Source of the DNA: a virus
IMG/VR virus record: IMGVR_UViG_3300021512_000003
Location: 17,889-81,888 of that record
Direction: 5' to 3' (one strand)
DNA: 64,000 bases
A program made the position numbers and the translations under genes. Below, one piece after another: positions 30,962 to 57,451 of the stretch. Each line of letters opens with the position of its first letter. The stretch's first letter is position 1. A model generated the notes under the pieces. That model made no database searches. It worked only from the letters and a program-made list of their open reading frames with translations, and was not told the DNA's origin.

Positions 30962-31018
30962 TAACCTTTTGATTTCATCAGTATGACTTTGTGTAGTCTG
31001 TATAGTCCAGTGTTATAA
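30962..31018 (+). other. attI-like site A (IHF box plus simple site ending G/TTATAA)
   Basis: 30968-31016 is identical to 57401-57449 (49 bp); GTT at 31012 heads array 1; IHF consensus at 30962-30974. Confidence 0.7.
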
Positions 31019-31218
31019 ATAATAACCAAGAACCTAGGAGGTTCTAAATACGAAACCAATAAACCACCTAAACTATAAAACGATTGAGAAAGACCTCAAC
31101 CAAGCACTACAATCCCACATCTCTTACGAAGATTGGATGGAGTTTATTGTAAGACTTGTAGGCGGCTCGGAAGACATCTACCAGATCAACTACATACTTC
31201 CAACCAGTGCTGGTATTA

Positions 31219-31431
31219 CTACAGAAGTTCCGCTTGCAGAAGCAACTTCTTTATACGTGGGTATAATTCGTCTTGTTGCTCCTCCGCAAGTGTGAGTACA
31301 TCCCTGAAAACTTGCTTATCCTCACTACCGTCTGCAAGGAGGATTTTGGGGACGAGGAGGTAATCTACCTCTCCATTGATATGCCTCTTTATGTTGTCCA
31401 GAACTCCTTGAAGTAAAAGTGTATCTATCAT
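31219..31431 (-). CDS. cassette gene, hypothetical
   Basis: 70 aa with a GAGG RBS, between site A and attC 31458. Confidence 0.55.
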   Translation of the reverse strand: MIDTLLLQGVLDNIKRHINGEVDYLLVPKILLADGSEDKQVFRDVLTLAEEQQDELYPRIKKLLLQAELL

Positions 31432-31457
31432 ATCTCTGTCCTCTTATCTAAAATTAT

Positions 31458-31515
31458 TTCTAACAAGTTAATGTTGTCGGAATTGCTACGCAATCCGCAA
31501 ATTAAGACGTTATGT
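31458..31515 (+). repeat. attC-like site
   Basis: TTCTAAC AAGTTAATGTTG..ATTGC TAC GCAAT..CAAATTAAGAC GTTATGT hairpin. Confidence 0.8.
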
Positions 31516-31516
31516 G

Positions 31517-31891
31517 TCAGTACTGCTCTCTCATTTGCTGTCGAAGTTGCACAATTTCATTCTTCAGCTTCTCATTTTCCTCCACCAAATCTTGATTCAA
31601 GTCTTTAACTACCTCATCCTTATGGTTGGAGTAAATAGCTTGGCGCAACTCCTTGTAATCATACGTGTGGTTAGCCCTCCCCCCACGGTATCCTTTAAAT
31701 CCATCCATCAAGGCGTTTCGGTAATTTGTCCAGTGATCAGAGTCAACGTAATAACTGACATCAGTATATAAATCGCCCAATACCTCATTCATCAAAGCTA
31801 CAAGTTTGGGTTTAAAGCTGTCCATTATTTTCTGTGCTTCTTCTTTCCCTTGCTCTGTAAGTTCTGGGTATAAAGGATAATCTTCACTCAT
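31517..31891 (-). CDS. cassette gene, hypothetical phage protein
   Basis: 124 aa; unit bounded by GTTATGTG and CACATAAC. Confidence 0.7.
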   Translation of the reverse strand: MSEDYPLYPELTEQGKEEAQKIMDSFKPKLVALMNEVLGDLYTDVSYYVDSDHWTNYRNALMDGFKGYRGGRANHTYDYKELRQAIYSNHKDEVVKDLNQDLVEENEKLKNEIVQLRQQMREQY

Positions 31892-31914
31892 TTTAATCTC
31901 TCCCGTTTAATCGC

Positions 31915-31978
31915 ACATAACAAAGCACTGAAAAATCGGACTGGCAGAAGAGCCAGCCACTTACAATAGGCGCTATAC
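31915..31978 (+). repeat. degenerate attC-like site (R' GTT changed to GCT)
   Basis: ACATAAC AAAGC...CTGGC..GCCAG...AGGC GCTATAC. Confidence 0.6.
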
Positions 31979-31997
31979 AGCCGCCTGTTACTAACAC

Positions 31998-32207
31998 TTA
32001 TGTATTTGACGGTTCAACTTCTTCGCTAAACTGTAACCCGTATGTAGCACATTCTGTGCAAATTTCAGTTTGAATGTACTCACCTTCTCGGTCGTTAGTT
32101 GTGTTCAGCCCATATCTGCTTACCCTAAAAACTGAGTCGCAGTTGATGCACTTTGCTATATAAGCTCTTTTGTGCTTATTACTATGCCTAATTAACTCCA
32201 CTATCAA
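31998..32207 (-). CDS. small zinc-ribbon protein
   Basis: CINC...CTEC. Confidence 0.55.
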   Translation of the reverse strand: MIVELIRHSNKHKRAYIAKCINCDSVFRVSRYGLNTTNDREGEYIQTEICTECATYGLQFSEEVEPSNT

Positions 32208-32769
32208 AACCTCTACTGGTAATATAACAACGGGCTGTTTTGTCTCTCACTTCATACCCCTCACATAACAAAGCGGCTCTTAGCATCTTGATAGTGTCTT
32301 TAATCCTCCTGATAGAGGGGAGCTTCCTGTATTGTGTAAATTTGTGAACCTCTCCAACAGACTCGTATATCCAACCATCACATCTAATTTTAAAACAATC
32401 ACCAACCTTTATACATTGTACCACAAGGTCTGGCTTTTGTGTTATGTGTTTTCTTGCTTTCTTCTTCAGAGTCACCACCGTCAAGAAACATGTTATCGTA
32501 GTGTTGATGAGGTAAAACAACCACAGAATCACAGGCATTACAGACACCAACCAGTCTTACAAGTCCAGAGCCATCACTAAAAGGTGTATTTCTTAATTGA
32601 AATGTTACATTTTGAAATGACTTGCAAGGACTACAAGCTGCTCTTTTAGTGTCTCCAACCTTCAATGTTTGCTGCATATCTTTGTTGTTAAAACTCAAAC
32701 CCACCCCTCTACTTGTACCATTGTTGTTTGACGTATCTTCATAAAACAAGAGTATAGCACACTTAAAAA

Positions 32770-35280
32770 TTAATGACAATCCTTCCAGCTTCCTCCAATA
32801 ACGTATCCTGCTGTTAGTGGTACGTTTAGATTAAAATGCTTCCCAGCCTCATTTACAGATTGTGCTGCAAGCTCTCCTGTTGGAGAATAAGCAATATAGT
32901 AATCATCTTTCTTCCCTTTTTTTATGTCACTCCACATAATACCACCTTTCTCCTCTATTGTCTTGAAATTAATTGCTTCTTTTTCTGTAGGAAATGTCCT
33001 TATGTCTACTAATTCTTTACTTACACTATTCTGCCCTTCATCGTGATAAGCAATAGACTGCATGGAACACTTCTTCTTTGTTACATCCTCTTTAAATGGA
33101 TTACCAGAGTAGCCTAGTGCTTTATATTTCCTGTCTAGCCACACCATAGCCCACTTCATGCAGATAACACCTGCTGACTGGAACTTCACATTCAAAAGTG
33201 AGTGTTGACTCCTCGTAGGTAGTTGTCTACCATCTATTGCTGTAAGGAATTTCTTATTATTTGTACTCCACTCTGATTCAACTTGTTGTTTGTATATCGC
33301 AAGAGGTAGTGCATCTTCCCAGAAACTCTCGACCTCTTTCTTCCCTTTTGCCAAGCTCCAGTTCATTTGCTTTGCAGCCCCTGCTGCTGAAGAGCCGTAA
33401 GTTAGTGAGTATTTTAATGTCTTACTGTCATCTCTACTAATACCTTTACTCTCTGCTCTTCTCGAATGAAGGTCCTGTGGCTTCTTAGCTATGAGGGATG
33501 TACAATATGGGTGGCCTTCTGTATCACAGTTCCAAACGTAGTGCCCCTCTATCCTAGCCTCTAGACCATCAGCATCGTACCCCTCTAAGAAAGCGTACCT
33601 TGGGTCTGCCATGAAGAGTGCTCTCATGTGTTCTCCGTACAGACTACTGCTTCGAGGTACGTTAGCTACCCCCTTATGCTGGAATCTTGAGGTAGCACAA
33701 CCACAGGGGTCTGCTGGGGTGGGTATGCGTCCGTCTATGGCTAACCTGCCATGTGAGAGCCACCCTGTAATCCTCTTCTTCTTTTCACTGGCAGGGGAGT
33801 AGATAGAGTTCTTCCTGTGTCTGTATGTAAGCCACTCTACGATGTGCTTTACATACCACACTTTCCTACCTAGCCTTACGAGGTTATCACACAACTCTTT
33901 GTCTGCATTCTTAGTGAAGACAGGGAGGCCAACAACCTTTAATGGTTTGTTGAGTTTATGCTTCAGAAGCTTCTCTCTAAGGCCACTAGGTCTCACTCTC
34001 AAATTAGCACACCTCTCTTTCTCGAAAGGTGTACCTATTGTGGCCTCAATATACCTATCTACAGCAGCTTCAAACTTCTCTTGTGTCAGCTTCTTCTTCT
34101 TACTATCCAGTGTTAGGTCTTTGTCTTTCCAGTTCAGAGGGTTCCACCCCAGTGTTATTAGGTATGCCTTAATGTCTTCTTGGTGAGACAGTAGCATTGG
34201 CTCTGTAGTAACAAGAGACTCTCCCTCTGGTAAGGGGAGATCCCACATCTTATTAAAGATCTCAACCTTTCTTGGAAGGATAAGGGTTTTCTTTACTCTC
34301 TTGCCTACCTCTCTTTCTTCGTGAGCTACAACCCTACCTCCGTGCTTTTCTAAGAATTTAGCTAGATTAGCAGACATAGTACCGTCCCCAACAAATTGTC
34401 CTTTTGGAGGTATGAACTTTTTAGCTTCTGTCTTCCCTATCTTTTTTGGTGGTAGGAGGTGTTCTACATCTTGCTCTATCTTATCCATTTTCTGTGTAAG
34501 ATCTTTTACGCACCACTCAGCAAGCTTAATATTGAACTTAAAGCCGAAGTGTTCTTGTCTTGTTATAACCTCTGCTACAGCCTTCTCTAACTTGTAAGCC
34601 TCACCCCAAGACCACGTACCCCACTCCTTCTGGAGCATCTTGTACACTGCTAGGTTAGCTATACAGTCTTGGATGTTGTAGTAGAGCATGTCTGCACCAA
34701 ACCACGTAAACCTGTCCTCGTCCCACTCTTTTCCATGTCTGAACTCAACCTTAAAAGAGCCTGCTGCTTGAGACATCTTTGCAAGGGAATGTCCACACCA
34801 CCTATCTGGGTTTAACACTTTAGACATAACAAGTGTGTCGTGAATGTATACGTCTTTACCACCTACCGTGTCAGACTCTTCTTTATTGAAGCCAACAGTG
34901 TATGGTTGGTCATAAAGTAGGTCCATTAAGAGAAGGTCGTAGTTAATAATGTTATGACCTATAAGCATCTTTGCCTCGTCTTTGATGAAGGCAGGCACCT
35001 CGCTTAGTGGGTAGTGTGTGTATTCATACTGTGTGTAGTGCTCTAGTGGCACAGTGAGTCCATTCGGGTATGTTGTGGTGTGAGATCTACCGTCAAACAG
35101 TATCTTGTCACCATCACAAAATGCAAACAACTCAGAAGTGGTTGTGTCAAGAAATACAAAGCAATGTGCCTTAAAAGAGGGAAGAAGCTTATATGGCATT
35201 TTGCTGTAGTCAATAGACTCATAATTGAGTAGGTTATTAGCTTCTGCATCAAATATTAACTTCCTTCCTGACATATTCAT
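32770..35280 (-). CDS. DNA polymerase, family A (T7-like) with a 3'-5' exonuclease domain
   Basis: FDAE, GHNIINYD, YNIQD; motif A DADGLEARI; motif B RDDSKTLKYSLTYG; motif C YHDE. Confidence 0.95.
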   Translation of the reverse strand: MNMSGRKLIFDAEANNLLNYESIDYSKMPYKLLPSFKAHCFVFLDTTTSELFAFCDGDKILFDGRSHTTTYPNGLTVPLEHYTQYEYTHYPLSEVPAFIKDEAKMLIGHNIINYDLLLMDLLYDQPYTVGFNKEESDTVGGKDVYIHDTLVMSKVLNPDRWCGHSLAKMSQAAGSFKVEFRHGKEWDEDRFTWFGADMLYYNIQDCIANLAVYKMLQKEWGTWSWGEAYKLEKAVAEVITRQEHFGFKFNIKLAEWCVKDLTQKMDKIEQDVEHLLPPKKIGKTEAKKFIPPKGQFVGDGTMSANLAKFLEKHGGRVVAHEEREVGKRVKKTLILPRKVEIFNKMWDLPLPEGESLVTTEPMLLSHQEDIKAYLITLGWNPLNWKDKDLTLDSKKKKLTQEKFEAAVDRYIEATIGTPFEKERCANLRVRPSGLREKLLKHKLNKPLKVVGLPVFTKNADKELCDNLVRLGRKVWYVKHIVEWLTYRHRKNSIYSPASEKKKRITGWLSHGRLAIDGRIPTPADPCGCATSRFQHKGVANVPRSSSLYGEHMRALFMADPRYAFLEGYDADGLEARIEGHYVWNCDTEGHPYCTSLIAKKPQDLHSRRAESKGISRDDSKTLKYSLTYGSSAAGAAKQMNWSLAKGKKEVESFWEDALPLAIYKQQVESEWSTNNKKFLTAIDGRQLPTRSQHSLLNVKFQSAGVICMKWAMVWLDRKYKALGYSGNPFKEDVTKKKCSMQSIAYHDEGQNSVSKELVDIRTFPTEKEAINFKTIEEKGGIMWSDIKKGKKDDYYIAYSPTGELAAQSVNEAGKHFNLNVPLTAGYVIGGSWKDCH

Positions 35281-35330
35281 AACCTATAGTTAAAGTAACA
35301 AGCTCCTGCACTGTTTTGCAACTTGTGCAT

Positions 35331-35672
35331 TTAGTCGTGCTTTGCCTCTTCCAAGTTAGCCAAGGCTGCTGCCAACTCATCTTCAAAGTAATGCTTACCT
35401 CCAATCAACACTGTACTTCGCAAGTCTTCTCCACACAACCACCCTATGTCAATGTCTGCACCAATGTCTTCACTAAAGACAACTCCACTGTTACTAGAAA
35501 GGATTTTTCCAGTAACACCTGTAAATAAAAAACATTTATCCGTATGACGGAAACGCTTACCACCCATAGACCACCTATACCCAAGGACAAATAAGCGCTC
35601 TTGTATAACCTTACTCACTTCCTTGTCGTAACCAATGTTAAACTTCATATTTTTAAATTCAAACATATACAC
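35331..35672 (-). CDS. hypothetical phage protein
   Basis: IQERLFVLGYRW; GAGG RBS. Confidence 0.6.
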   Translation of the reverse strand: MYMFEFKNMKFNIGYDKEVSKVIQERLFVLGYRWSMGGKRFRHTDKCFLFTGVTGKILSSNSGVVFSEDIGADIDIGWLCGEDLRSTVLIGGKHYFEDELAAALANLEEAKHD

Positions 35673-35973
35673 CTCTTATTTTATGTGATCTGTTGTACTG
35701 TGGGTACAAGCATAGCATACAGTACTGTGCGACACAAGTACGTTCCTTTTTCCTTACCTTTGGTAACCCGTTGTGCCATCTCTTAACTCTCTTATTAACC
35801 TGATAGCTTTATTTAACTTTAGGAAGACATCGGCAGCTACCTCTACATCGCACAACAAGTAGATAGATTGCTGCGTCTCCCTTAGCTCTGCAATAAAATC
35901 ATCTATCTCATTTTGTTGTTTTGTCATCACACTGCCTCTTGTTAAGTGTTAGTTGGTTTCACTCTAACCGGTG

Positions 35974-36735
35974 TTAAGCATACTGACTAATTCCCTCTTC
36001 ACACCACACATCACTCGACCCATCAAGACTAGCATGAGCAACCTTGTCAATAAAACTGTACTCCTCCTCACCCTGAAACTCTGAGACAAACTTGTACTTT
36101 CTTATAGCCATATACTTTGCTTCGTTCTTCATCATTGTAAAAAGTAGACCTTCCGATGTGTCTTCATTCTCAATGAAGCCTAAAGGTACTCTCTGAATAA
36201 ACTTTGTGGCAGCAAGCCAGTACGCTTCACTTACCTCTACCTCAGACAGATTAAACCTTCTAGTAACCATGTGCGGCATAGACAGTGCCCATCTTCCAAT
36301 TTCTTTTTCTAAAGGGGTTTTATTTAATAGACAATGCTGGTAACAGGCTTTCCCTAGAACACTCTTGAACTTACTGTAGTGCTGTAATGTCCTGTGATCA
36401 GCTACAGTGTTAAAATCATACAGCCCCGCCAAATTCTCAGCCCGACAGTTCAGCGTATCCTTATCTCTAAAAACTATCTTACTGCAATCTGAGTCAGGTA
36501 GGAAGTGTTTTGCAACAAGAGTGTGTACGAACACATTAAACACTCTCCCTTGTGTTGTTTTGCGGCTTAAAAACACCCTAAGCCTTGGGCTAGAGTTCTT
36601 GCGCCTTTTGCTTATATAAGGTTTCAACACCTTCTCTCCAAACTTCTTTGTCCAACTCATAACTCTACCAAGACTGCTGATATAGGCGTTATCTATTCCG
36701 TTAATAGCTTTCCACTCTTCACTACTCATAGTCAC
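35974..36735 (-). CDS. NUMOD4/HNH-like protein with a degenerate active site and helical C-terminal domain
   Basis: EEWKAI, YISSLGRV, VHTLVAKHFL; VFRDKDTLNCRAENL where VNH.DG...NN...NL is expected. Confidence 0.7.
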   Translation of the reverse strand: MTMSSEEWKAINGIDNAYISSLGRVMSWTKKFGEKVLKPYISKRRKNSSPRLRVFLSRKTTQGRVFNVFVHTLVAKHFLPDSDCSKIVFRDKDTLNCRAENLAGLYDFNTVADHRTLQHYSKFKSVLGKACYQHCLLNKTPLEKEIGRWALSMPHMVTRRFNLSEVEVSEAYWLAATKFIQRVPLGFIENEDTSEGLLFTMMKNEAKYMAIRKYKFVSEFQGEEEYSFIDKVAHASLDGSSDVWCEEGISQYA

Positions 36736-36744
36736 CTCTTACAA

Positions 36745-37020
36745 TTAAAACTCTGGTCTACACCCTTCACCATCACTCTCTTGTGCAGATGTATGCTTGT
36801 TCCTTGCTTCCCACTCTTGTATTGTATCACAATGTACGTCCTCAAGGAAGCCCTCTGGTGGTTCTATAAAGTCTCCTGTTGAGTTATCGTAGAACAAAGG
36901 AACCTTCCCAGTACGCCCATACTTCCTGTCGTCAAGGACTACCAAAGAACGTGTGTTCTTTTCTTTAGTGGTTTGGTCTGGGTCTTTATTCCCCTCTAAG
37001 CCAATCATGTAGTGACAACA
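36745..37020 (-). CDS. primase-helicase exon 2
   Basis: CCHYMIGLEGNKD...LDDRKYGRTG completes the SF4 helicase motif H4 and Arg-finger region. Confidence 0.85.
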   Translation of the reverse strand, partial: CCHYMIGLEGNKDPDQTTKEKNTRSLVVLDDRKYGRTGKVPLFYDNSTGDFIEPPEGFLEDVHCDTIQEWEARNKHTSAQESDGEGCRPEF

Positions 37021-37734
37021 CAAATATGTTCAAGGAGGTTCGCTACTACCTCCCCCGCACCACCTCTTAGGTGCTGCTGCTCTAGCTTTCACTAGAAGTT
37101 CAGACTATATCACCATCTCCTTATAAGAGATGCCTTCCATTTCCACCACCAATAGCTTGTGGTGTACGAGCTTACGCTCTAGTCGTTGAGGTTTACTAAC
37201 TTCTTTGTAGTACCCCTAGCCTTGTACCAAGCATCACCTGAGCAATACAGTGAGTTGGTTACAGCATGTTGTACGTTTTCTTGTTGGGATACTACCTCAA
37301 GATTACTTAAAGAGTTATTTACTGTGTTACCATCTATATGGTTTACAACTTCATTTTTATTAAGTTGTCTACCTATATGTACTGAAGCAATTAACCTATG
37401 TAGCATATAAAGCTTATCTTTTAGCCTTACACGCATATAGGGGTTTTTACTTCTTCCCCAGTGCTTGTAAGGTTTTAACCTCTTAATTTGAGGTTTTCTT
37501 GCTATACTATATATGTTACCTTTTAAGTCTACAAAGTATTTATCCATTTCTGGTACTTGCAGTAAATCTTGTTTTGTTAGTCTTACCTGCTGATTGCCCA
37601 TTGTAACATCCTTTTATTGTTCATCATTGTATCACACATAACTACCAAGCTCTACAACTATAAAAAGGCTTTAGGGGTTTCCAGCAATTAAAAAGGTTTG
37701 CAAAGAGAGTCACCTCTCTAGGGCGCTATTGTTA
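37021..37734 (-). mobile_element. group I intron (714 nt, IA-like) in the primase-helicase gene
   Basis: P1 GCGU/UAACAAUAGCGC with a U-G pair; P AAUUGCUGGAAA; Q AAUCAGCAGG; R UCAACGACUA; S GAUAGUC; terminal G; splicing restores SRSMMR-CCHYMIGLEGN in frame. Confidence 0.9.
37179..37601 (-). CDS. intron-encoded HNH homing endonuclease
   Basis: HRLIA...VNHIDGNTVNNSLSNLEVVSQQENVQHA. Confidence 0.9.
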   Translation of the reverse strand: MGNQQVRLTKQDLLQVPEMDKYFVDLKGNIYSIARKPQIKRLKPYKHWGRSKNPYMRVRLKDKLYMLHRLIASVHIGRQLNKNEVVNHIDGNTVNNSLSNLEVVSQQENVQHAVTNSLYCSGDAWYKARGTTKKLVNLND

Positions 37735-39231
37735 ACGCATCATAGACCTACTACCAGTGAACTGAGAACTATAAACCTTCCCTCCAAACTCATGTGGCTG
37801 GCCTTTATCTGGTGCTTTAAGATGACAGAAGCAATAATAAGTAAAACCTAAATCTATACTCATCTTACTAATCTCATCAGCAAACCTATCAAGCTCCGTG
37901 TTTGCCTCGGAGGGAGTCATCCCTGTTGTAAGCCTGGTTATCGGGTCAATAATGATGTCTTCGCAATGCTCAATAAGAACTGCATGACGTATAGCCCCTT
38001 TCAGCTCATCCCAACTACACCTACCATAGTTATTATACAGGCAAAGACGTGGGCCTGTCTTGTCCGAGGCTGCTATTAAGTCTTCTTGAGTGAAGTAGTT
38101 TGACCTGTCAACAGGAGGGGCTTTCTCTTGGAACTCACCACAATCATCAACATAGAGGACAACCTCCTCTCCTTTCTCATTAAAGAAGATAGCCTTCTCT
38201 GGATTAGTGAAGTCCTTCTTAGACTCCTTACCAGCTACACGGTGAATCGTCTCCGTTGTCGGTTCCTCGAATTTAAACACAGCAACCTTCTGAGGCTTAC
38301 CTAGTGAGTTCTTATCTCGCGCCAATATGTGACTAATTAGTTTATCTGCTAGACAACTCTTGCCCTGCTTCACACCTGCCCCAAAGTAATACCCCTCCCC
38401 CAACCTACGTCCTAATGTAAGTCTTGTTAAAGACCTCCAAGGCCACGTCTTACCTACCACAGGTAACTTATGTGTCTCCTCTCTAATCTCCTCGTAGAGA
38501 GTAAAACCTTCTGGTGTGTACTGGGAAGGCTTCATCAGCATCCAGTAAAGAGCTGTACTCCCCTCTTTCAAGTAGACATCACAAGGGTCACTATCTTCTG
38601 GTAGTTTTGCCACAAGCATATCTGGGAATAGTCCATATACGTCAGCAGTGGCCTCATTGCCTCTCTTTATCTTCTTTAGTCTCTCTTGTGGTGTTGCACT
38701 ATCGTTATCAAAAGCAAACACCTTCTCACTAAATTTATTCAGGTAACGTGTATTTGCTTTCTGTCCTAAGTTCTGAACAGCGTTAGCTGTCCCACAACCA
38801 ATACTTAGTGTGGTGGGATTACCTTTACCTTTGTAACCTTCCTTTAGGCATTGCCACATAAGCATACAATCTATCTCACCCTCACTAACAAATACTTTCT
38901 TCCCCCCAGTCTTATTACCAGATACCAGCCCAAACAAATCGCACTTAACACCGTGATACCCTATAGAGGTGAAGTGGAAGTTACCTTGCTTTGGCTTAGT
39001 CAAGTCTCGCTTCTTATAACCTACAATCCTATCTTCTATTGTGTAGGGGAAGTAGTGAGCTATAGGTGTACGGCCATCACTACTGCTAAGCTCAGTTCTA
39101 ACACCAAAATGCTCTGCTGTCTTTTGTGTGATCTTCCTTTCTTCTATAGGAAGGATAGGAAAGGTGAGTACGTCTGCTAACGTCTGCTCCTTCACTCTCC
39201 CATAGCTTACTCCTGCTGTAGCTTTATTCAT
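37735..39231 (-). CDS. primase-helicase exon 1 (TOPRIM plus SF4 helicase)
   Basis: SEGEID, FDND, Walker A GAGVKQGKS, IIDPIT and CHL; start placed at ATG 39231 (GGAGAG RBS). Confidence 0.92.
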
Positions 39232-39427
39232 CTTCTCTCCTGTTTGGTATGTCATAGTCTCACCTATCCATTAAAGCCTTTTAATTATCTGGTGTGTGTA
39301 TACATAGTTAATACCTTATCGTTAATACCTCATCTTTTTATAATGTACATACTAAGACGTTCTCTAAAACCGTACAGTATTCTTGTTCCTCTGTTAGCCT
39401 TACCACAGGCTTACTACTACTGGTTTG

Positions 39428-39484
39428 TAAGTGCTTGATTTTACTCCTACGACCTTGCGTAGTCTGTATAGTCCAGTGTTATAA
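39428..39484 (+). other. attI-like site B
   Basis: Ungapped match to sites A and C with identical core GTAGTCTGTATAGTCCAGTGTTAT; GTT at 39478; IHF consensus at 39428-39440. Confidence 0.7.
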
Positions 39485-39486
39485 AC

Positions 39487-39687
39487 CTAATCATTGTTAG
39501 GTTTTGGCTTAAAGTCACCATCAGCATCGCAATGCTCAGGTGGCCACCCATGCTTTCTAATATTCATCGCTCTAAGCGGATACTTTATTAAATACCTATA
39601 GAGCGTCTCAAGCATTAACCCAATACCCACAATAATAAAAAATGTAAGAACTGGACTGTCGCTCATAAATTCATAAATTGTTGTCAT
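39487..39687 (-). CDS. cassette gene, small membrane protein
   Basis: One TM helix, then HGWPPEHCDADGDF; unit ends GTTATAAACC and GGTTTATAAC. Confidence 0.7.
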   Translation of the reverse strand: MTTIYEFMSDSPVLTFFIIVGIGLMLETLYRYLIKYPLRAMNIRKHGWPPEHCDADGDFKPKPNND

Positions 39688-39709
39688 ATCTATGGCCTGT
39701 TAAGTCGGT

Positions 39710-39781
39710 TTATAACAAAGCAGTCAAGCTGACAGTCTCTACGCTGCGCTTCGTTCCTGCCGCTTACTTATTGCGTTATGT
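39710..39781 (+). repeat. attC-like site
   Basis: TTATAAC AAAGC AGTCAAGC...GCTTACT TATTGC GTTATGT; extra C in L''. Confidence 0.9.
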
Positions 39782-40468
39782 TGCACTAATTCTATCTTGT
39801 GCAATCTTAAAGTATTCTTCATCTAGCTCAATGCCAATAAACTTACGACCAAGGTTTTTACAAGCTACGCCTGTGCTACCGCTACCTAAAAACGGGTCGA
39901 GTATTGTTGCACCTTTATCACTAAACTTTATCAATAGGTATTCCAATAAATCAACTGGCTTTTGTGTTGGGTGTAATTTATTGCCAGTTCTATTGAACTT
40001 TAAAATATTAGGATCACGCTTACCGTTTATAAGTCTACGTCCTTTCTGTATAAAAATAATCATTTCATACTTTGGTGCAAAGTCGGCTTTTAAATCACCC
40101 ATACTAGTGTTGTTCTTTTCCCATATAAGTATATTCTTTATTTTAAATTTTTGCTCTAGTGCTTGCTTGAATTTATCAATATTATGAAAGCTACAAAAAA
40201 CATAATGCGCCGTATTGTCCGCAGCAACTCTAAATAATTCATCAATCCAAACATCAAGCCATCTTAAGTCTTTATCGTTTTTTATCTTACTGTATTTCTC
40301 AATCCTATAGTTACTCTGAAACTCCATACCATATGGCGGGTCGGTCAATATCATATCAACTGAACCATCAGGTATTTCTTTCATTCTTTCTAAGCAGTCT
40401 CCTTGCATCAACCAAGGATTTAGATCTTCTTTTTCTATATCTGCTAGTCGTTCATTTTTGTAGTGCAT
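39776..40468 (-). CDS. cassette-borne DNA adenine methyltransferase (N6/N4 family, beta class)
   Basis: TDPPY, HPTQKP and LDPFLGSGST; stop codon lies inside the attC GTTA. Confidence 0.92.
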   Translation of the reverse strand: MHYKNERLADIEKEDLNPWLMQGDCLERMKEIPDGSVDMILTDPPYGMEFQSNYRIEKYSKIKNDKDLRWLDVWIDELFRVAADNTAHYVFCSFHNIDKFKQALEQKFKIKNILIWEKNNTSMGDLKADFAPKYEMIIFIQKGRRLINGKRDPNILKFNRTGNKLHPTQKPVDLLEYLLIKFSDKGATILDPFLGSGSTGVACKNLGRKFIGIELDEEYFKIAQDRISAT

Positions 40469-40493
40469 TTTAATCTTTCCTTTAGTTCGTGCA

Positions 40494-40569
40494 ATATAAC
40501 AACAATTTCAAAAAGACACGTACAGTTTGTTCCAAACGTGCCCTTAGCATTTTAAATTAAGGGTTATGT
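40494..40569 (+). repeat. attC-like site
   Basis: ATATAAC AACAA TTTCAAAA..CACGT..ACGTG..TTTTAAA TTAAGG GTTATGT. Confidence 0.75.
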
Positions 40570-40584
40570 TACTAAACCAAGCGT

Positions 40585-40973
40585 TTACCAACTACATAAA
40601 TCATGCTGTTTATTTAGAGAGTGCATCTCTACATCTTCGCACGTCTCAATATCAAACATTCCAATATGGCAATCACTTGGCTCAATATTTAAAGTCTCAG
40701 CTAGCCATTTGTATGCTTCTTTTCTTTTCATATCTCCAAATTTCCATAATGGATCAAAGGCTCTATGCGCTGCGCTTTTTGCTTTTCTTAGCTCTTTATT
40801 TGCCAACCTACCTAATGGCTTTGTTGTTCCTTTGTGTGTACCAACGTAGGCATCACAACCAACACAAGAGTAAAAACTCAAGCTAAATAAATCCTTTCGG
40901 TGTGGGTAAACTTCCTTTCCTGTAACTGCCTTTGAGAATTGTTTGCAGTATGGGCATGTTGGTGTCAAATTCA
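40585..40973 (-). CDS. cassette gene, zinc-finger protein (DUF3268-like)
   Basis: CPYC, C..CDAYVGTH, PLGRLA, AH.AFDPLW and CHIGMFD; start MNLTPTCPYC. Confidence 0.8.
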
Positions 40974-41000
40974 TTCTATCAATCCTTTTTAGTGGTGGTA

Positions 41001-41073
41001 ACATAACAAGGTTTTCAAAGCGGACACATTACAGCGTACCGCTTTCATTTAGCCGTTTAAAACGAGGTTAGGT
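41001..41073 (+). repeat. attC-like site
   Basis: ACATAAC AAGGT TTTCAAAG CGGAC...GCCG TTTAAAA CGAG GTTAGGT. Confidence 0.8.
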
Positions 41074-41099
41074 TGCAAAAACAACATTTAAGTTGTCCA

Positions 41100-41297
41100 T
41101 TAAGTGACTGAACGAATATCCAGACTTTTCATGCTTTTTATGTAAAGAACTCTCATACCAGTCGCCATCTCCATTGCAACCTTTAATTCTGCATTATTAG
41201 GCTCGAATCTTGAGTATAAGATAGTATAATCACCATTCAATTCAGGAGAACTCTTACTATTGAGTATAACTTTCTCGCCTGCTTTAAATTTAGCCAT
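41100..41297 (-). CDS. cassette gene, hypothetical
   Basis: MAKFKAGEKVIL; 65 aa. Confidence 0.6.
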   Translation of the reverse strand: MAKFKAGEKVILNSKSSPELNGDYTILYSRFEPNNAELKVAMEMATGMRVLYIKSMKSLDIRSVT

Positions 41298-41323
41298 AGA
41301 ATAACCCCTTTAATTTAACAGCA

Positions 41324-41382
41324 GCCTAACAAGGCTGCTGTTTTGGAAGCGCTGAAGCGCTCCACAAAGCTTTACGTTATAT
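41324..41382 (+). repeat. attC-like site
   Basis: GCCTAAC...TGGAAGCGC TGAA GCGCTCCA...GTTATAT; near-identical to 57689-57747. Confidence 0.85.
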
Positions 41383-41609
41383 GTAATAAGTGTCCACACA
41401 AACTTCAGCATGAATGTGTATCTGGTCTTTTCCACATCTCTATCTAAACCATCTTAAACAGTCGTATACTTAAACCCCCTCACAACAAACCGGACACCCT
41501 TGTGAGGTTAAGCGGTAGCCCACCAAGGAGGAGGGCAAGCACTCAAACTTTACTTACGATTAACACTCAGTTCTGTGGTGGCAATAACTGACCAACCACA
41601 GGAAAGCAT

Positions 41610-41708
41610 ATGGACCCAATTAGCATCATCCTCACCCTTAAAGTCGCAACCCTATCCGTTGCGCTAGTTACTGAACTCGTCAAGCTGTATAAAGAACTTA
41701 GTAAGTAA
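41610..41708 (+). CDS. 32-aa hydrophobic peptide, candidate type I toxin (TisB-like pattern)
   Basis: MDPISIILTLKVATLSVALVTELVKLYKELSK; AGGA RBS inside a stem; structured leader. Confidence 0.55.
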   Translation: MDPISIILTLKVATLSVALVTELVKLYKELSK

Positions 41709-41843
41709 CTAACAATTAGAGTGCAGTACCAAAGATAATCTATAAAACGGTTTCAGAATCCAACTGAATAAAATGGAGTTTAAAATAAATCTTAAATCAG
41801 TAGCGTCTTATCCTCCTTGAGTTTGGCGCTCATTAAATATTAC

Positions 41844-41915
41844 ATCTAACAATCACATTAAGTCACTTCGTTCGGACTGTCGCTGACGCGTCAGCCGCTT
41901 ATGTGGGCGTTATAT
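41844..41915 (+). repeat. attC-like site
   Basis: ATCTAAC AATCACATTAAG..CGGACTG..CAGCCG CTTATGTG GGC GTTATAT. Confidence 0.8.
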
Positions 41916-42172
41916 CACTCATCCACCCATAAAAGCTTTTTAGTTATTCTGGTTTCAGTCACTTCTTTAGAGGTCTCAATGATCTCTGATTTTGTTTTGA
42001 ACATCACGAACAGCCTCTCAAGCTCTGCGTCGAGTGCTGCATCAAAAATATCACTCATCCCATGATCGGTGGCGTAGTCGCGCATACAAAGGAGTTCTAT
42101 GGTGTAATCTCCCAGCTCACACCCGTCAAGGTGCGCGTATTCGGTCAGAATGTTGTATCTATCTTCGTTCAA
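41915..42172 (-). CDS. cassette gene, hypothetical
   Basis: GGAGG RBS, TTG start, 85 aa. Confidence 0.65.
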   Translation of the reverse strand: MNEDRYNILTEYAHLDGCELGDYTIELLCMRDYATDHGMSDIFDAALDAELERLFVMFKTKSEIIETSKEVTETRITKKLLWVDE

Positions 42173-42185
42173 AATAACCTCCGTA

Positions 42186-42241
42186 ATCTAACAATCAATT
42201 TAAACCGGATTGCTACGCAACCGCTTAATTGAGCGTTATAA
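42186..42241 (+). repeat. attC-like site
   Basis: ATCTAAC AATCAATTTAAACCGGATTGC TAC GCAACCGCTTAATTGAGC GTTATAA; near-identical to 58787-58842. Confidence 0.9.
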
Positions 42242-42250
42242 GGCTTAGCC

Positions 42251-42502
42251 CTAATTCTCTTTCTCCCAATTCCTTTCGCCTTTTTCAAAGGCAACAGCGA
42301 TGTCCAGCACCTCTCTCACGGTTTTTCCGTACTGGTGCTGCGAAGGAAGGCTGAATATCTCAACAGGTACTTTTTCCATACCTGGTTGGCTTCCAATCAA
42401 AGAGTTTTGTTGTATTTTAACGCCACATCCCTCACCTGTGCCGTCTTCCACTAGCATACGCTCTATAAAGTCGATGCGGTCTTTGTCTGTAATTTCGCTC
42501 AT
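42251..42502 (-). CDS. cassette gene, hypothetical phage protein
   Basis: ITDKDRIDFIE...TVREVLDIA; unit ends GTTATAAGGC and GCCTTATAAC. Confidence 0.7.
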   Translation of the reverse strand: MSEITDKDRIDFIERMLVEDGTGEGCGVKIQQNSLIGSQPGMEKVPVEIFSLPSQHQYGKTVREVLDIAVAFEKGERNWEKEN

Positions 42503-42529
42503 GTTTATATCCTTGGTAGGTAAATCGCC

Positions 42530-42586
42530 TTATAACAAGGCATTGCAGCGGACGCGCTCTGCGCGCCGCATAGTTTTGCGTTAGCT
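42530..42586 (+). repeat. attC-like site
   Basis: TTATAAC AAGGC ATTGCAGCGGACGCGC TCT GCGCGCCGCATAGTTTTGC GTTAGCT. Confidence 0.85.
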
Positions 42587-42780
42587 ATCATTAATTACTC
42601 TACGCACTGCACACAATTTATCCCCGACAACGATGTAGCCCGCTTTTATCCGTTGTGTAAACTGGGCGCGTTGCACTCCGATTGCTCGCGCAAATGCGCT
42701 TTGATTCCTTTGAAAGTTTCGGCTATAAAGTCGGCCAGCCTTTTCAGCCCGTCCGCTTTGCATTTTTCGCTAGGTTTCAT
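42581..42780 (-). pseudogene. Cro-like HTH gene, apparently frameshifted
   Basis: MKPSEK..LADFIAETFKG in one frame continues as NQSAFARAIGVQRAQ..GYIVVGDKL in another. Confidence 0.5.
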
Positions 42781-42986
42781 AGTAGATTAGAGTCGATATA
42801 TTCCTGCGCTTCATCCTTGGAAGCGAAGGTGAGCGCACCTTTTTCATCGCTCACATCAGCTCGCGCAATCGAATCATATATTAAAAACGGCCCTGCAAAA
42901 TCAAACCGCCAAAGCCGAGTTGGGTGAAACCTGCATTCCATAACCCAACCCCCTATGTTGTCTGCGTTGCAAATTTCGTGACTCAT
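42777..42986 (-). CDS. cassette gene, hypothetical
   Basis: GAGGAG RBS; C-terminal FASKDEAQEYID. Confidence 0.6.
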   Translation of the reverse strand: MSHEICNADNIGGWVMECRFHPTRLWRFDFAGPFLIYDSIARADVSDEKGALTFASKDEAQEYIDSNLL

Positions 42987-43034
42987 GTTGTTTCTCCTCA
43001 GCGCCTTCGGGTCACTCCCTTAGCTCATGTATGT

Positions 43035-43063
43035 ATAGTAATATACACCCCACACACTGTCAA
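43035..43063 (-). promoter_or_regulatory. sigma70-type promoter inside a cassette
   Basis: TTGACA-17 bp-TACTAT on the minus strand. Confidence 0.7.
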
Positions 43064-43093
43064 CGAAATGCTATACAAATAATCAAATAAAAT

Positions 43094-43155
43094 AGCTAAC
43101 AAAGCAACTCAAATCCGACTCCGCTGGCGCTTGCGGTTTAGCTGAGGCGTTATGT
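43094..43155 (+). repeat. attC-like site
   Basis: AGCTAAC AAAGC AACTCAAATCCGAC...GCGGTTTAGCTGAGGC GTTATGT; extra C and extra A on the left arm. Confidence 0.9.
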
Positions 43156-43350
43156 GGAAAAACAGGCCTCAAGGGCATCTAAATACTGTGGTAAATTCTC
43201 ATAGTTTCCCGTAAGCTCAGCCGTCTTCCTTTCACTAGCGACTGCTCTTGCTGATGAGAGAACGCGGAGCACTTGATGGCTGGTTCCGCCCTGCCAGCTT
43301 AGTGCTTTTATAGCCTCTTCCAAAAACGGATCTTGTTTATTATTTGTCAT
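43150..43350 (-). CDS. cassette gene, hypothetical
   Basis: 66 aa (ALSWQGGT); stop codon inside the attC GTTA. Confidence 0.65.
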   Translation of the reverse strand: MTNNKQDPFLEEAIKALSWQGGTSHQVLRVLSSARAVASERKTAELTGNYENLPQYLDALEACFST

Positions 43351-44570: not shown

Positions 44571-45195
44571 AGGGTATCACACCTTTTTCAGAAACACAAC
44601 ACTACAGCTCGATTTTGTTCACTAAGCAAATAAAAGAGGTGTAGAAAATAGAGTAAAGAGTGCTTAAAGAGAGAGAAAAATGGTGTTTTATTACACTTCT
44701 CTTGCTATTTATTTCTCTCTCCACTATACTCCTTATCTCATTATTTCGGAGAGGTAATACAGTGAAACTAAGTGAATGTAGTGTAGGTAGAGTGGTGCTA
44801 ATACAAGAGGATGGTCGCCCAACAGAGGTTGGTCATGTTGTAGGGTTTTCTCGACTGTATCAGACAGCTCCACTAGAGAGCACGAAAGTAGAAGTTATGA
44901 TCCCTAGTGGGAAGACTATTGTTACTTCAGTTGGTGATTTGGAGGTGTATTGTGGGTGATCCTAGAAAGTGTATTTCTGCTATGGGTGGGCACATTAAAT
45001 GGCAACTAATAACAAAACCCAACAACTCTACCTTTTTATGTGTTATCTTCACAGGGGAGGATTATGAGTTTGGATATTGGGATGAATCTGTGTGTTGCTG
45101 GGATTGTCCAGAGAAGGGGTGGGTAGAGGATTCTGAGGTGTTAGGGTGGTTTGAGCTACCCCTACCACCAGAACCTAATCAAGAGGCACTAAAAG

Positions 45196-45492
45196 GTGTG
45201 TAGTGTTAGAGCTAATGTAGTGTTCTCTGCCTACATCGCTGTAGGGGATTATGACTCTCTTGCAGTGTGGGGCTTAGAAGAGTCTGGTGCGGGTGGTTAC
45301 GAGTCACTGGATGGACTCCCTACAGTGTGTGTTGAGACAGAGTTAGAGAACCTTGGGGCACAAGACTGGTATGACTGTCTACCAAAAAAGGCTACAGAGC
45401 AAGGCGTGTACTTCTTAACAGGGTCTGCTTCTTTTGAGGAAGACGATGTTGAATACTTGACAGCAGATTACCAAAGTATTAAGGTGTGTTAA
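45196..45492 (+). CDS. acidic hypothetical protein
   Basis: 98-aa ORF in a run of small plus-strand genes. Confidence 0.5.
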   Translation: MCSVRANVVFSAYIAVGDYDSLAVWGLEESGAGGYESLDGLPTVCVETELENLGAQDWYDCLPKKATEQGVYFLTGSASFEEDDVEYLTADYQSIKVC

Positions 45493-45577
45493 TGGGGTAG
45501 CTATTGCTAGCCACACAACTCAAGAGACTTTTCATTCACTATTTCAATTTCACTAATAAGCACAAGAGGGTAAAACA

Positions 45578-45814
45578 ATGAAAGAAGTTATCTTAGTAGA
45601 AGAAAATAAGAACACTATTGACTTATGGAGAGTGGACACCTCCAGACCCATCTTTGCCAAGAAAGGTGGTAAGCTTGTTGGTATGCTTTTGAGAGAGTCT
45701 GATGGGTGGGTCGTAAGGTATGGTGACGGGAGGGGTGTAACAGGGCACTACAGTACAAAAAAAGAGTGCCTCGCATCGACTACAGATTTTAGCTACACCT
45801 TCCGCACAAAATAG
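45578..45814 (+). CDS. hypothetical protein, paralog of 53130..53387
   Basis: Shared PI.A.K.GK.VGML..E..GW..R.G...G.TGH. Confidence 0.65.
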   Translation: MKEVILVEENKNTIDLWRVDTSRPIFAKKGGKLVGMLLRESDGWVVRYGDGRGVTGHYSTKKECLASTTDFSYTFRTK

Positions 45815-45882
45815 TAACAAACAAGGCTGTCCTTTGTTCCAGTACTTAGGACAGCCCCTCTAATCACTCTGCCAGTAGTAAC

Positions 45883-46044
45883 CCACTCAAGCGACTTCTC
45901 ACCTCACCTTTCAATTTTCCCGCAGTAAACTTATCCACTCAAGCAATTCCTCATTCAGCTGTTCAGTTTCACTAGCACAGGTTGATCCACTCGAGCGATT
46001 TCTCGTTCCACTCAAGAGAGTTTTCATCTCAGGTTTCAATTTCG
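45883..46044 (+). repeat. degenerate direct repeats CCACTCAAG...TTTCAATTT
   Basis: Copies start at 45883, 45935, 45987 and 46008; one further copy near 45518. Confidence 0.75.
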
Positions 46045-54838: not shown

Positions 54839-55282
54839 ATGACAAAAGATGACGCAGTAACTTACGCAACAGAAGCACACAGGGGTCAGATGTATGGCGA
54901 TAAACCTTACGTTTACCATTTAGAGCAAGTGGCAAAGGAGTACCTCTCGTTTTTCAGAGGGAGTGCAGTAGAGGATGGTGTAGTTGTAGCCTACCTCCAC
55001 GATGTCTTAGAGGACACAGATAAGACAGAAGAAAACTTACTACAGGCAGGCTTCTCTCAAGGAGTTGTTTCTTGTGTTAGCAAGCTCACCTTTTGGAACA
55101 AGTTATCACGGGAGCAGTACATAGAGGACATTAGAGTGTTGCGTCATAGTCCGACAATACTACGTGTTGCTTGGGAGGTTAAGGTGGCAGACACAATGTC
55201 AAACTTGAGACACAGTGTAAAGGAGGGTAACGTAAGGAGAATATCTAAATACATGGAGCAAGTGAGGAGACTTTATGCTTAA
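54839..55282 (+). CDS. HD-domain hydrolase (RelA/SpoT hydrolase or Mesh1-like)
   Basis: AHRGQ..PYVYHL, LHDVLEDT and VKVADTMSNL motifs. Confidence 0.85.
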   Translation: MTKDDAVTYATEAHRGQMYGDKPYVYHLEQVAKEYLSFFRGSAVEDGVVVAYLHDVLEDTDKTEENLLQAGFSQGVVSCVSKLTFWNKLSREQYIEDIRVLRHSPTILRVAWEVKVADTMSNLRHSVKEGNVRRISKYMEQVRRLYA

Positions 55283-55349
55283 GACAACTCTGATAGGTTA
55301 GAGAGGGCACGTTAGTGGTGTGCATATATTTATTTCACAGGAGAAGAGT

Positions 55350-56039
55350 ATGATTGTATTGAACAGAATAGAGACACCAGATGGTACACAAATTACAAGT
55401 CACTACAGGCACGACTATGTGAGCCACGAAGATGCAAATGGGTTCGTTTACAGTGTAGATGGTGGTTTGGACTACATTAAGCGTAGTGCCCATAGAGACG
55501 CTCCTTCGTGTAAAGAGCTTTCAGTGTACTCTGAAGATCCTTTTGAAGAAGTTCGGGAGGCATTCCTCTGGGGTACTTATGGGAAAGATGGTGGAGAGGC
55601 TCTTAAGCACGTAGCTCTTTGTGAGCTGACAGATGAACACATACAGGCTATACTTGACACACAGGGTCACTTATCTGTAGACGTGTGTGAGCTGTTCCTC
55701 TTAGAGCAGAAGTGGAGAGAGAGTCACCAAGAGAGGCCTAGAGAGCAATCTGAACTAGGGGTACAAGAAGAGCACATTAGGTGGGGTAAGGCACTTGCTG
55801 AGATGCTCCTTGGTGCTGAGGAGTACAATAGTCATAAGGTGACAGAGTTCTCTACCTTTCCAAAGAAGATGCTTCTGTTGTTGTGTAAGGAGTTGGAGAA
55901 AGTGGAGGTTTCTTGTACATACATCCAACTCTGCACGGATATGTCAGGAAGTGTTTACCAACAGGACTATTGGGGAGAAGGGGATCACCCGCTGGGGCAC
56001 AGAGACAGGCTACTGTTAGGTGTTGGAGAGATAACTTAG
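55350..56039 (+). CDS. hypothetical phage protein
   Basis: TPDGTQITSHYRHDY, VDGGLDY and WGTYGKDG. Confidence 0.7.
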   Translation: MIVLNRIETPDGTQITSHYRHDYVSHEDANGFVYSVDGGLDYIKRSAHRDAPSCKELSVYSEDPFEEVREAFLWGTYGKDGGEALKHVALCELTDEHIQAILDTQGHLSVDVCELFLLEQKWRESHQERPREQSELGVQEEHIRWGKALAEMLLGAEEYNSHKVTEFSTFPKKMLLLLCKELEKVEVSCTYIQLCTDMSGSVYQQDYWGEGDHPLGHRDRLLLGVGEIT

Positions 56040-56048
56040 TATACAGTG

Positions 56049-56072
56049 AAGGGGCACAAAGCCCCTTTTTTT
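56049..56072 (+). terminator. intrinsic terminator at the convergent junction
   Basis: AAGGGGC-ACAAA-GCCCCTT followed by a T run. Confidence 0.8.
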
Positions 56073-56080
56073 ATTACCGA

Positions 56081-56752
56081 TTATTCAGACTCTAGGACAA
56101 GCTCTCCATTATCAACGTACAACCTATACACCTGACCATTAACTCTATCTGTTACTCGAAGAACAGCAAAACCCTTCTTACCCATCTTAGCCATATCTAT
56201 GGCTACAGGCTCACTTCCCTGCATACCTGCAAGTGCGTTCTCTCTGAAGTCAATACCTGTGTTCCAACCTAGTGCCTCTCCAAGAGGTGAAGCTGGTAGA
56301 GAGTTAATCTGTATAGCTCTTGAGTTCCAATTATACTTATTAGACCCAACACCGCCTAGAGGCTCTGCAACACCGTCACGTCTATTCTTGATGTTGACAG
56401 CAATACCTACCTTAGCTCCTTCATTCTCAGAGTTAAGAGAGATTACAGAAGACTCCAGTCCAATTTGGTGTATTGTTGCCACACCTTCATGTGAGTTCCA
56501 GGCTTCTGTAGCCACACCAAAGGAGTGACCTATGCCATAGAGGGCTGTGTTGTGAGAGTTTAGTTGAGCAGCTACAGACAAGTTCCTGTTTGCTGTGAGG
56601 GAGGTGGCTCTGTTATCAGCAGTTATGCCGTAGGTGATGTGATCAGTGCTGGACTGGTACTTTACGTGGAGAGGCTCTTTGACTACCTCTGCTGTAAGAA
56701 AACCACAAGAAAATGTAGTTGTGAGGGTTAGTGCTAGTATTGTCTTTTTCAT
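56081..56752 (-). CDS. hypothetical exported protein
   Basis: MKKTILALTL signal-peptide-like start; beta-rich body. Confidence 0.6.
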   Translation of the reverse strand: MKKTILALTLTTTFSCGFLTAEVVKEPLHVKYQSSTDHITYGITADNRATSLTANRNLSVAAQLNSHNTALYGIGHSFGVATEAWNSHEGVATIHQIGLESSVISLNSENEGAKVGIAVNIKNRRDGVAEPLGGVGSNKYNWNSRAIQINSLPASPLGEALGWNTGIDFRENALAGMQGSEPVAIDMAKMGKKGFAVLRVTDRVNGQVYRLYVDNGELVLESE

Positions 56753-56834
56753 GGTAAGCCTCTTAGTTATGTGTCTTAGTAGGCACACTATAACTTAAGA
56801 GGCTCGTAATTGCAAATGTTGGTCAGCTAATAGT

Positions 56835-57383
56835 CTACTCTTTGTCTTCCAGACGTGTTTGGATCTGCTCTGCACACAAATATAAATCCCTTCCCATAAG
56901 AACTTCCTCAATCTCGTCTTTTGATAAAAACCCTTTGTAGATATTCCTCAAGGCTTCGTCGTAGTGCTTCACTTTGAAATCACCACCAGCGATAAACTCA
57001 TTTCTCTTACCACACTCTCCCCCTGACCAAGCATGGATGAGCATCTGTGCATAAGGAGAGATACTAAAGCTAGAACACCCCAACACAAGAATACTGCCTG
57101 CACTATAGATCTTCCCGTGCAAGCAGGCTGTTGTCTTTGCAGGTGTGTTCTGTAGGGCTTGGTATATGAGGAGGGCTGTGTCCGTATCTCCTCCATTTGT
57201 GTCCAAAAGTATTTCTATTTGGTCATCAACTGTAGCATTGTAGATTAAGTCTATAAGGGAGTGATATTGTGAAGATCCTTGAATGTCGTCTTTGAAGTAC
57301 AAACTATAAGAGGTCCCTATAGGAGAAGCTTTTATTGTGTAAGGCAGGTCTTCGTAACTCTCTTCTACTTCCATTGGAGGCAC
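56835..57383 (-). CDS. ClpP-like (S14) serine protease
   Basis: LDTNGGD, YSAGS and MLIH motifs; DLYLCAEQ. Confidence 0.85.
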   Translation of the reverse strand: MPPMEVEESYEDLPYTIKASPIGTSYSLYFKDDIQGSSQYHSLIDLIYNATVDDQIEILLDTNGGDTDTALLIYQALQNTPAKTTACLHGKIYSAGSILVLGCSSFSISPYAQMLIHAWSGGECGKRNEFIAGGDFKVKHYDEALRNIYKGFLSKDEIEEVLMGRDLYLCAEQIQTRLEDKE

Positions 57384-57394
57384 CCTGTTGTGTG

Positions 57395-57451
57395 TAAGTG
57401 TTTGATTTCATCAGTATGACTTTGTGTAGTCTGTATAGTCCAGTGTTATGT
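57395..57451 (+). other. attI-like site C
   Basis: 49 bp identical to site A; GTT at 57445 heads array 3; IHF consensus at 57395-57407. Confidence 0.7.

Follow-up and report, generated by a model that had tools for sequence, protein, structure and literature searches.

A module present four times in a tailed phage genome as a putative equivalent of the integron attI site

What is the function of a short sequence that stands, always in one orientation, at the head of every cassette array of a phage genome in which no integrase is found? This question is raised by the window analysed here, the whole stretch of 64,000 nucleotides (nt) that corresponds to bases 17889-81888 of the IMG/VR virus record IMGVR_UViG_3300021512_000003, a complete virus record of 81,888 bp with a 127-bp terminal overlap. 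An earlier note on this DNA, made from its letters, described three copies of an attI-like entry site, each heading an array. What we define here as the module is this element in its full extent of ~55 bp. We aim to show that it is probably a phage-borne equivalent of the integron attI site, used in trans.

The module consists, in this order, of a consensus of the type bound by integration host factor (IHF), a half-variable block of 17 nt, and an invariant block of 24 nt ending in G|TTAT, where the bar marks the cut. The invariant 24-mer is found exactly, on the + strand, at 30993-31016 (module A, 30962-31016), 39459-39482 (module B, 39428-39482), and 57426-57449 (module C, 57395-57449), which puts GTT at 31012, 39478, and 57445, as the earlier note had it, the G being the crossover base in each case. 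Even though its count of three is correct for the window, the whole 81,888-bp genome has four, since a further exact copy in the same orientation (copy 4) lies outside the window, at genome 4849-4872. No additional match was found in the window even when up to three mismatches were allowed, and none of 100 shuffles contained any match to the 24-mer. When the copies are aligned on the G of GTT, pairwise identity is 24/24 over the 24-mer and 20-30/37 over the 37-nt block preceding it, and falls to background in the flanks, with 7-14/34 farther left and 11-19/40 to the right of GTTAT, where the likeness had indeed been said to end. The copies form two pairs: copy 4 and B, which share their left half and are identical over ~48 nt, and A and C, identical over the final 49 nt; pairwise alignment also bears out that B aligns with A and C without gaps. 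The two variants differ at seven positions of the 17-nt middle block and at none of the adjoining 24.

In every copy, the IHF-type consensus, WATCAANNNNTTR on the minus strand, begins 50 nt from the G (in the window, at 30962-30974, 39428-39440, and 57395-57407), and the N4 stretch is a different one in each of the four. Genome-wide there are five matches to it, against a chance expectation of 5.4, and four of the five are those in the modules, in the same register. Within the 24-mer, a 9-nt unit is directly repeated, as TGYGTAGTC and TGTATAGTC; in the form TGTRTAGTC it is found ten times in the genome (1.4 expected), six of them inside modules. CCAGTGTTAT has six copies in the genome, where 0.2 would be expected: the four modules and two extra copies, one at window 57491-57500, 50 nt to the right of module C and within its first cassette, and the other at window 34149, in the DNA polymerase gene. 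As for folding, two module copies gave z-scores, over both strands, of 0.20, 0.31, -0.52, and -0.60, compared with -3.2 and -4.1 for two attC sites. This agrees with the earlier statement that the site is not a hairpin, and supports its assignment to the non-folding, double-stranded type of site, the recombining form being predicted from folding.

The position of the cut can be read from the cassettes themselves. A cassette that moved as a circle opened at G|TT would be expected to start with bases that pair with its own R'' flank and not with that of its neighbour. The 8 nt that follow GTTA at the start of each cassette were therefore compared with the reverse complement of the 8 nt that precede its own TAAC. 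Over 21 cassettes, three of which make up one end-family, the mean score was 5.67 of 8, against 3.00 +/- 0.32 for permuted partners, and none of 10,000 permutations came up to the observed mean; over 10 nt, physically neighbouring partners score ~3. The four cassettes that touch a module score 6, 7, 7, and 4 of 8, with their own partner ranking 1, 1, 1, and 3 among the 21. Because the starts of these first cassettes pair with their own far ends, the GTT of the module is a real crossover point, and because the four are unrelated (the 11-19/40 identity given above), the same G|TT has been used repeatedly.

The repeats that separate the cassettes are genuine attC sites, with their top strand on the + strand. 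An alignment of nine repeats of like build, with the structure assigned by hand, has a stem of 22 pairs, 13 of which show both-sided (compensatory) changes, and 89% of the stem cells pair, versus 27-40% with the partners slid; an automatic treatment (MAFFT and RNAalifold) of 16 attC sites that differ in length yielded no structure. Two covariance models, one built from the nine repeats and the second from 20 phage hits, both of phage sequences only, were used to search the window and the first 17.9 kb of the genome, with 50 kb of plasmid R100 serving as an outside control. The sole match in these 50 kb of R100 was the aadA1 attC, in the sense orientation of that gene, with 42 bits and then 54 bits (E 2e-11). 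In the phage, the + strand holds 22 distinct sites, 21 of them with E < 0.001, and the minus strand one marginal match (E 0.96), so the top strand of attC lies on + throughout. All 22 sites fall in four stretches that begin at a module and run rightward, and the first attC lies exactly one cassette away from the module in every copy (416, 497, 297, and 296 nt). Thus, the claim that the site heads every array extends to all four copies. With clustered imperfect hairpins, R'' and R' boxes, extra-helical bases, and no integrase found, these stretches have the features of clusters of attC sites lacking integron integrases (CALINs).

Altogether, the four arrays sum up to at least 21 cassettes under a common head. 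Array A (31013-31987, + strand) has two cassettes: A1 at 31013-31509, with its attC at 31461-31512, and a second one whose attC, at 31918-31990, is weak (E 0.4). Array B (39479-43149, + strand) has eight, with attC sites at 39710, 40494, 41001, 41324, 41844, 42186, 42530, and 43094. Array C (57446-64000, + strand) has attC sites at 57689, 58113, 58403, 58787, 62257, and 63947, with no match to the attC model between 58842 and 62257, and continues across the contig end with three more sites at genome 74-1350, just ahead of the gene for ribonucleotide reductase (RNR). The cassette genes with family matches, namely an N6_N4 methyltransferase (PF01555), DUF3268/phrog_1934, and phrog_30464, are all on the minus strand; in array B, these include the methyltransferase at 39776-40468 and DUF3268 at 40585-41004, and phrog_11543 (43489-43926), right past the final attC of this array, is on the minus strand as well. 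In R100 the gene has the usual orientation relative to its attC; these cassette genes are thus antisense to it and read toward the module, and the arrays are embedded in long leftward transcription units. Different arrays have attC sites in common at 89-98% identity, and the cassette content shared between arrays is limited to attC sites and an element of ~34 nt.

This ~34-nt element, which has a short hairpin around AGGAGG, recurs in three arrays where cassettes start or close by (window 31017-31050; genome 883-925, 6505-6537, 6862-6897, and 7192-7216), and three times within one long 1.7-kb 'cassette'. At the extreme right of array 4 (genome 8205-8262), a degenerate attC that belongs to the 42186/58787 family and has mutations in both boxes was recognised by eye. 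At the far end of array C, an inverted GTTAG...CTAAC hairpin lies just past the RNR stop codon (genome 1343-1385); a terminator with inverted R-box-like ends has been described at the edge of one phage cluster by Qi et al. 2023 (PMC9892861).

Further evidence on the joint comes from strains in vent samples. A sequencing run from a hydrothermal vent, X1, holds 99% of the sampled words of the genome and may be its source, compared with 6-12% in three other vent studies. Strain contigs were compared with window 29000-46000, and the pieces from runs X2 and X4, which belong to two of these other vent studies, are 95-99% alike over core genes. In both runs, the joint 39481->41847, with 47 nt on its shorter side, has module B followed by DNA other than cassette B1, the next window match being at an attC. 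In X4 (depth 9.8), the joint 43399->39478 has the start of cassette B1, at the G of module B, preceded by an attC-like site. The joint 31508->31012, present in both runs, links the end of the A1 attC to the start of an A1-type cassette, a junction that belongs either to a circle or to a tandem copy, and the joint 31504->43145 (X2) has one attC followed by a cassette that here follows a different attC. Loose ends in X2 also start right after the R' box at 39784. The reading of GTT as the insertion joint is in this way upheld by the strain variants as well as by cassette-end pairing, and the earlier proposal to check whether the DNA right of GTT varies while the left is kept has been answered in part, by the other DNA that follows module B in the X2 and X4 contigs. 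Two X1 joints, 31016->41336 and 31017->31461, were discarded because cross-mapping of repeats in arrays C and 4 would account for them, and the loose-end consensus to the left of 39435 was not used, its agreement being only 0.61-0.74.

Where could the recombinase come from? The earlier note had pointed out that no intI stands beside the site, and in six-frame profile searches of the complete genome this turned out to be true genome-wide, with no match to the integron integrase profile TIGR02249 at E <= 10, and none to tyrosine (PF00589) or serine (PF00239) recombinases at E <= 1. The genes that adjoin the modules are instead an open reading frame (ORF) of 97 amino acids (aa), an endonuclease VII-like gene, the primase/helicase gene, and the ClpP gene. 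In the mechanism that we propose, the module would be a double-stranded target, into which circular cassettes with a folded attC would be recombined at the terminal G|TT. There would be four such entry points, each between a leftward core block and a cassette array, in a phage that has no integrase. An integron integrase from the host or from a co-resident element would act in trans, binding the invariant 24-mer and exchanging one strand at G|TT, and IHF would bend the DNA at its consensus, 50 nt off. Since the phage transcribes the arrays leftward, retention would be limited to cassettes with the gene antisense to the usual attC orientation. The module would then be dedicated to insertion, with the 24-mer as a putative integrase-binding site.

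The genome is that of a tailed phage, with a rightward structural block that includes a portal and a terminase-like gene, and leftward replication blocks with a family A DNA polymerase, a primase/helicase, a 5'-3' exonuclease, and an RNR large subunit with an intein. To the left of each of the four modules lies the 5' end of a leftward core-gene block, and to the right a run of small genes separated by the hairpin repeats. Leftward of copy 4 come the 97-aa ORF and then RNR. The first core gene leftward of module A is the endonuclease VII-like gene (30469-30903, minus strand; a weak match), before a 282-aa gene and the 5'-3' exonuclease, in the exonuclease operon; that of module B is the primase/helicase gene (37732-39255, minus strand), in a block reaching through to the DNA polymerase; and that of module C encodes a ClpP-like protease (56835-57383, minus strand). 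Promoters of the sigma-70 type were sought as -35 and -10 hexamers with a 16-18 nt spacer and at least 9 of 12 matching bases, and one such match (9/12) lies between module B and the primase/helicase gene, at 39311-39284. This primase/helicase has 507 aa, versus ~560-620 aa in most homologues, and ~170 non-coding nt separate it from module B.

Other features of the genome deserve mention. The gene of the RNR large subunit (genome 1398-4517, minus strand) is split by its intein, which has a LAGLIDADG domain, and there are two NUMOD4/HNH homing-endonuclease genes, at window 35974-36735 and genome 12135-12797, one of them within a replication block. Between the leftward and rightward gene blocks, at window 44470-44570, five TATTACT units follow each other at a spacing of ~23 nt, near GTAGTAC and CAGTATTAC; this region may be an iteron-type origin or a control region, and the 24-mer resembles the nearby stretch 44425-44455, by eye only. 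Window 63874-64000 equals genome 1-127, and this terminal overlap, which ends within an attC, looks like the assembly overlap of a circular or permuted genome and not like a physical end.

Searches for the module elsewhere were negative. The exact 24-mer had no match in the genomes of 185,579 species, in IMG/VR, or in JGI metagenomes, and an 18-mer had none in IMG/VR. The BLASTN check proposed earlier yielded no informative relatives, a 60-nt query giving only chance-level matches against GenBank phages (E >= 2), and a megablast search of phages with 2.5 kb also found none. Five related IMG/VR records, searched with up to three mismatches to the 24-mer, gave three matches, none of them at an array. 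The relatives of the phage are distant, the closest primase/helicase among 5.8 billion proteins being 64% identical, and at each of the loci of its IMG/VR relatives whose upstream 400 nt were compared (9 of 20), this gene comes directly after another gene, with no module. One distant relative, IMG/VR record G004 (140 kb; primase/helicase 60% identical), has a cluster of three attC sites (L031:4428-6119), of which the second and the third conform to the cassette-end rule.

A 19-nt pattern from one attC family gave five genome matches, about the number expected by chance. One of them (L040) is an attC in a metagenome-assembled genome (MAG) of Nitrospinota that encodes a true integron integrase (374 bits, cut-off 265) and in which ten matches to the phage-derived attC model are spread across the MAG. 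Its integron (L051:1-2369, contig C218) has the attI TAAC-CTG-G|TTAGGC, and its first cassette has an attC. This MAG was rejected as the host of the phage, as its attI shows no likeness to the module.

How well does an attI-like role stand up to these data? Several points weigh against it. The phage encodes no integrase, and no host, nor a host attI with the 24-mer, was found in the databases searched; the G004 relative, despite its attC cluster, has no copy of the module. The total of IHF-consensus matches is not above chance, and the literature search, judged from titles and abstracts, found no work on a role of IHF at attI. The attI1-like L box that the earlier note had proposed was not supported: both attI references compared, which were only attI1 of the class 1 integron In2 (R100; AAC-AAA-GTT) and the attI of the Nitrospinota MAG (AAC-CTG-GTT), have AAC-N3-GTT, a motif that is absent from the module. 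With only two references this is a weak test, and the TCC-AGT-GTT of the module is compatible with the L' boxes of the attC sites in this phage by position only. The R box reads GTTAT, its fifth base, T, departing from GTTRRRY, as it does in most of the phage's own attC sites. As for the strains, their contigs are short and of low depth, the letters between the two sides of a joint are not known, and the repeats of arrays 4 and C, outside the compared stretch, cross-map onto it. Finally, all four leftward core blocks (RNR, the exonuclease operon, primase/helicase-DNA polymerase, and ClpP) start with a module, and the variant of copy 4 and B contains GGAG, placed, at copy 4, 8 nt before the ATG of the 97-aa ORF.

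These last two points fit an explanation that we regard as unlikely but worth weighing, in which the module is a regulatory leader (a promoter, activator site, ribosome-binding site, or processing site) restarting core expression past a hairpin-rich array, with its GTT as an opportunistic target of the attG type. IHF sites are frequent at promoters, and units like the 24-mer (GTAGTAC, CAGTATTAC) recur in the divergent, putative control region at 44420-44570. Integrases, moreover, can use GWT sites anywhere at high frequency, according to the portion of Loot et al. (10.1101/2022.09.11.507474) considered here. However, none of the three window copies has a sigma-70-like match at 9/12 on either strand, the best fit by eye being 8/12 in one variant and 6/12 in the other, and no gene with a sigma-70 region 2 was found. 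A T7-type RNA polymerase was not found either, a result of little weight because the positive control of the same search was also silent. The distance from the module to the start codon varies (0, ~20, ~60, and ~170 nt), and copy B has a separate promoter-like site closer to its gene. Conservation is confined to the left side of the cut, and the strongest constraint adjoins the crossover and is farthest from the leftward genes. A leader would also leave unexplained the site preference implied by four different first cassettes at the same base. The attI-like role is therefore preferred, because the strongest constraint touches the crossover, because the one-sided conservation ends at the cut, which fits attI1 and is unlike attG, and because the start-codon distance varies and B has a promoter-like site of its own.

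Two other explanations carry far less weight. The module could be a piece of portable homology, the arrays being exchanged between copies by general phage recombination with no site-specific event at the module. Even though the identity of each pair of copies (4 and B, A and C) over 48-49 nt suggests gene conversion or duplication, and the attC sites common to different arrays at the identities given above would suit such exchange, we consider it very improbable: general recombination would not bring the break to G|TT in each of the four copies, nor make the first bases of a cassette pair with its own far end, the strain joints fall at R' boxes, and the arrays share no cassette content beyond attC sites and the 34-nt element. 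That the module is a chance repeat or an assembly artefact is hardly credible. The ends of the contig do overlap by 127 bp, and contigs assembled from short reads are interrupted at these repeats, but the shuffles never matched the 24-mer, contigs of the source run enter each repeat from unique flanks at an even depth of ~33, and the module is present in runs X2 and X4 too.

The attI equivalent could be part of a larger arrangement, which we put forward tentatively, as something that may well not hold. The genome would be a distributed, integrase-less integron, where private attI copies with an IHF site make a host integrase load and reshuffle cassettes at four places, and where the cassette pool is phage-specific, with genes inverted relative to attC as transcription runs toward the entry site. 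If this were the case, lytic phages would routinely trade accessory and counter-defence genes by integron recombination. If the module proves to be a true integrase target, a short DNA site would be all that lytic phages need to tap the integron machinery of their hosts. It was not until 2023 that integron cassettes were reported in phages, in small clusters whose origin is unclear; what is distinctive here is that the joints are readable to the base, that one entry site is used four times, and that vent strains differ at that very base. This raises the questions of how new attI sites originate and what the source is of cassettes with genes inverted relative to attC.

Among known systems, the 'mobile regulatory cassettes' known as promoter early stem-loop (PeSL) elements of T4-type phages are promoter-plus-stem-loop repeats by which small genes are exchanged through homologous recombination. 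The likeness is that accessory genes of a lytic phage are shuffled as modules bounded by repeated regulatory stem-loop sequences, whereas the repeats described here match the attC covariance model and have their joints at G|TT.

The closest comparison is with attI itself. Both are non-palindromic double-stranded sites at the head of an array, with a G|TT crossover, conservation to the left of the cut, the same orientation to the attC top strand, and a first cassette whose start pairs with its own R''; the geometry of attI1-aadA1-attC in R100 is that of module, cassette, and attC, with the module in the place of attI. The phage module differs in that there is no intI anywhere, that it has four copies and not one, and that it shows neither sequence likeness nor AAC-N3-GTT. 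An IHF-type consensus also stands at 50 nt from its cut, and the cassette genes point toward it. For this last reason it cannot be a platform with a promoter of the Pc type; the module has no sigma-70-like match and the matched cassette genes lie on the opposite strand. In the considered portion of Loot et al. (10.1101/2022.09.11.507474), the right part of attI1 could be changed without hampering recombination. The attG sites described there share with the module that they are double-stranded targets outside the integron, cut at GWT, and used at high frequency. As far as that portion goes, attG sites are cut centrally, need a motif to the right of the cut, and are not repeated modules, whereas the phage module has fourfold repetition and conservation that is all leftward. 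The module does have the GTT, and the right flanks at the far array ends show no likeness by eye.

In phages, the nearest case is the Shewanella prophage M16-3 (Qi et al. 2023, PMC9892861), where, as far as the consulted part of that paper goes, a second copy of attI also heads an integrase-less attC cluster. That attI is of the host type and the prophage carries a complete integron with intI, whereas here the site resembles no known one, and there are four copies and no integrase, in a genome of virulent type. The same work reports integrase-less attC clusters in the virulent phages TJE1, PH101, and P12002L, and recombination of five of six phage attC sites with attI1. These CALINs resemble the arrays described here as integrase-less attC clusters of lytic phages, and they too include an N6_N4 methyltransferase cassette; they are small, and the main text mentions no repeated head site for them, though the boundary table may hold more. 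A literature search likewise found no repeated phage-specific head site in an integrase-less genome, with the same reservation for the supplementary boundaries of Qi et al. Phage CALINs were thus already known (Qi 2023), and what is added here is a phage-specific head site in fourfold.

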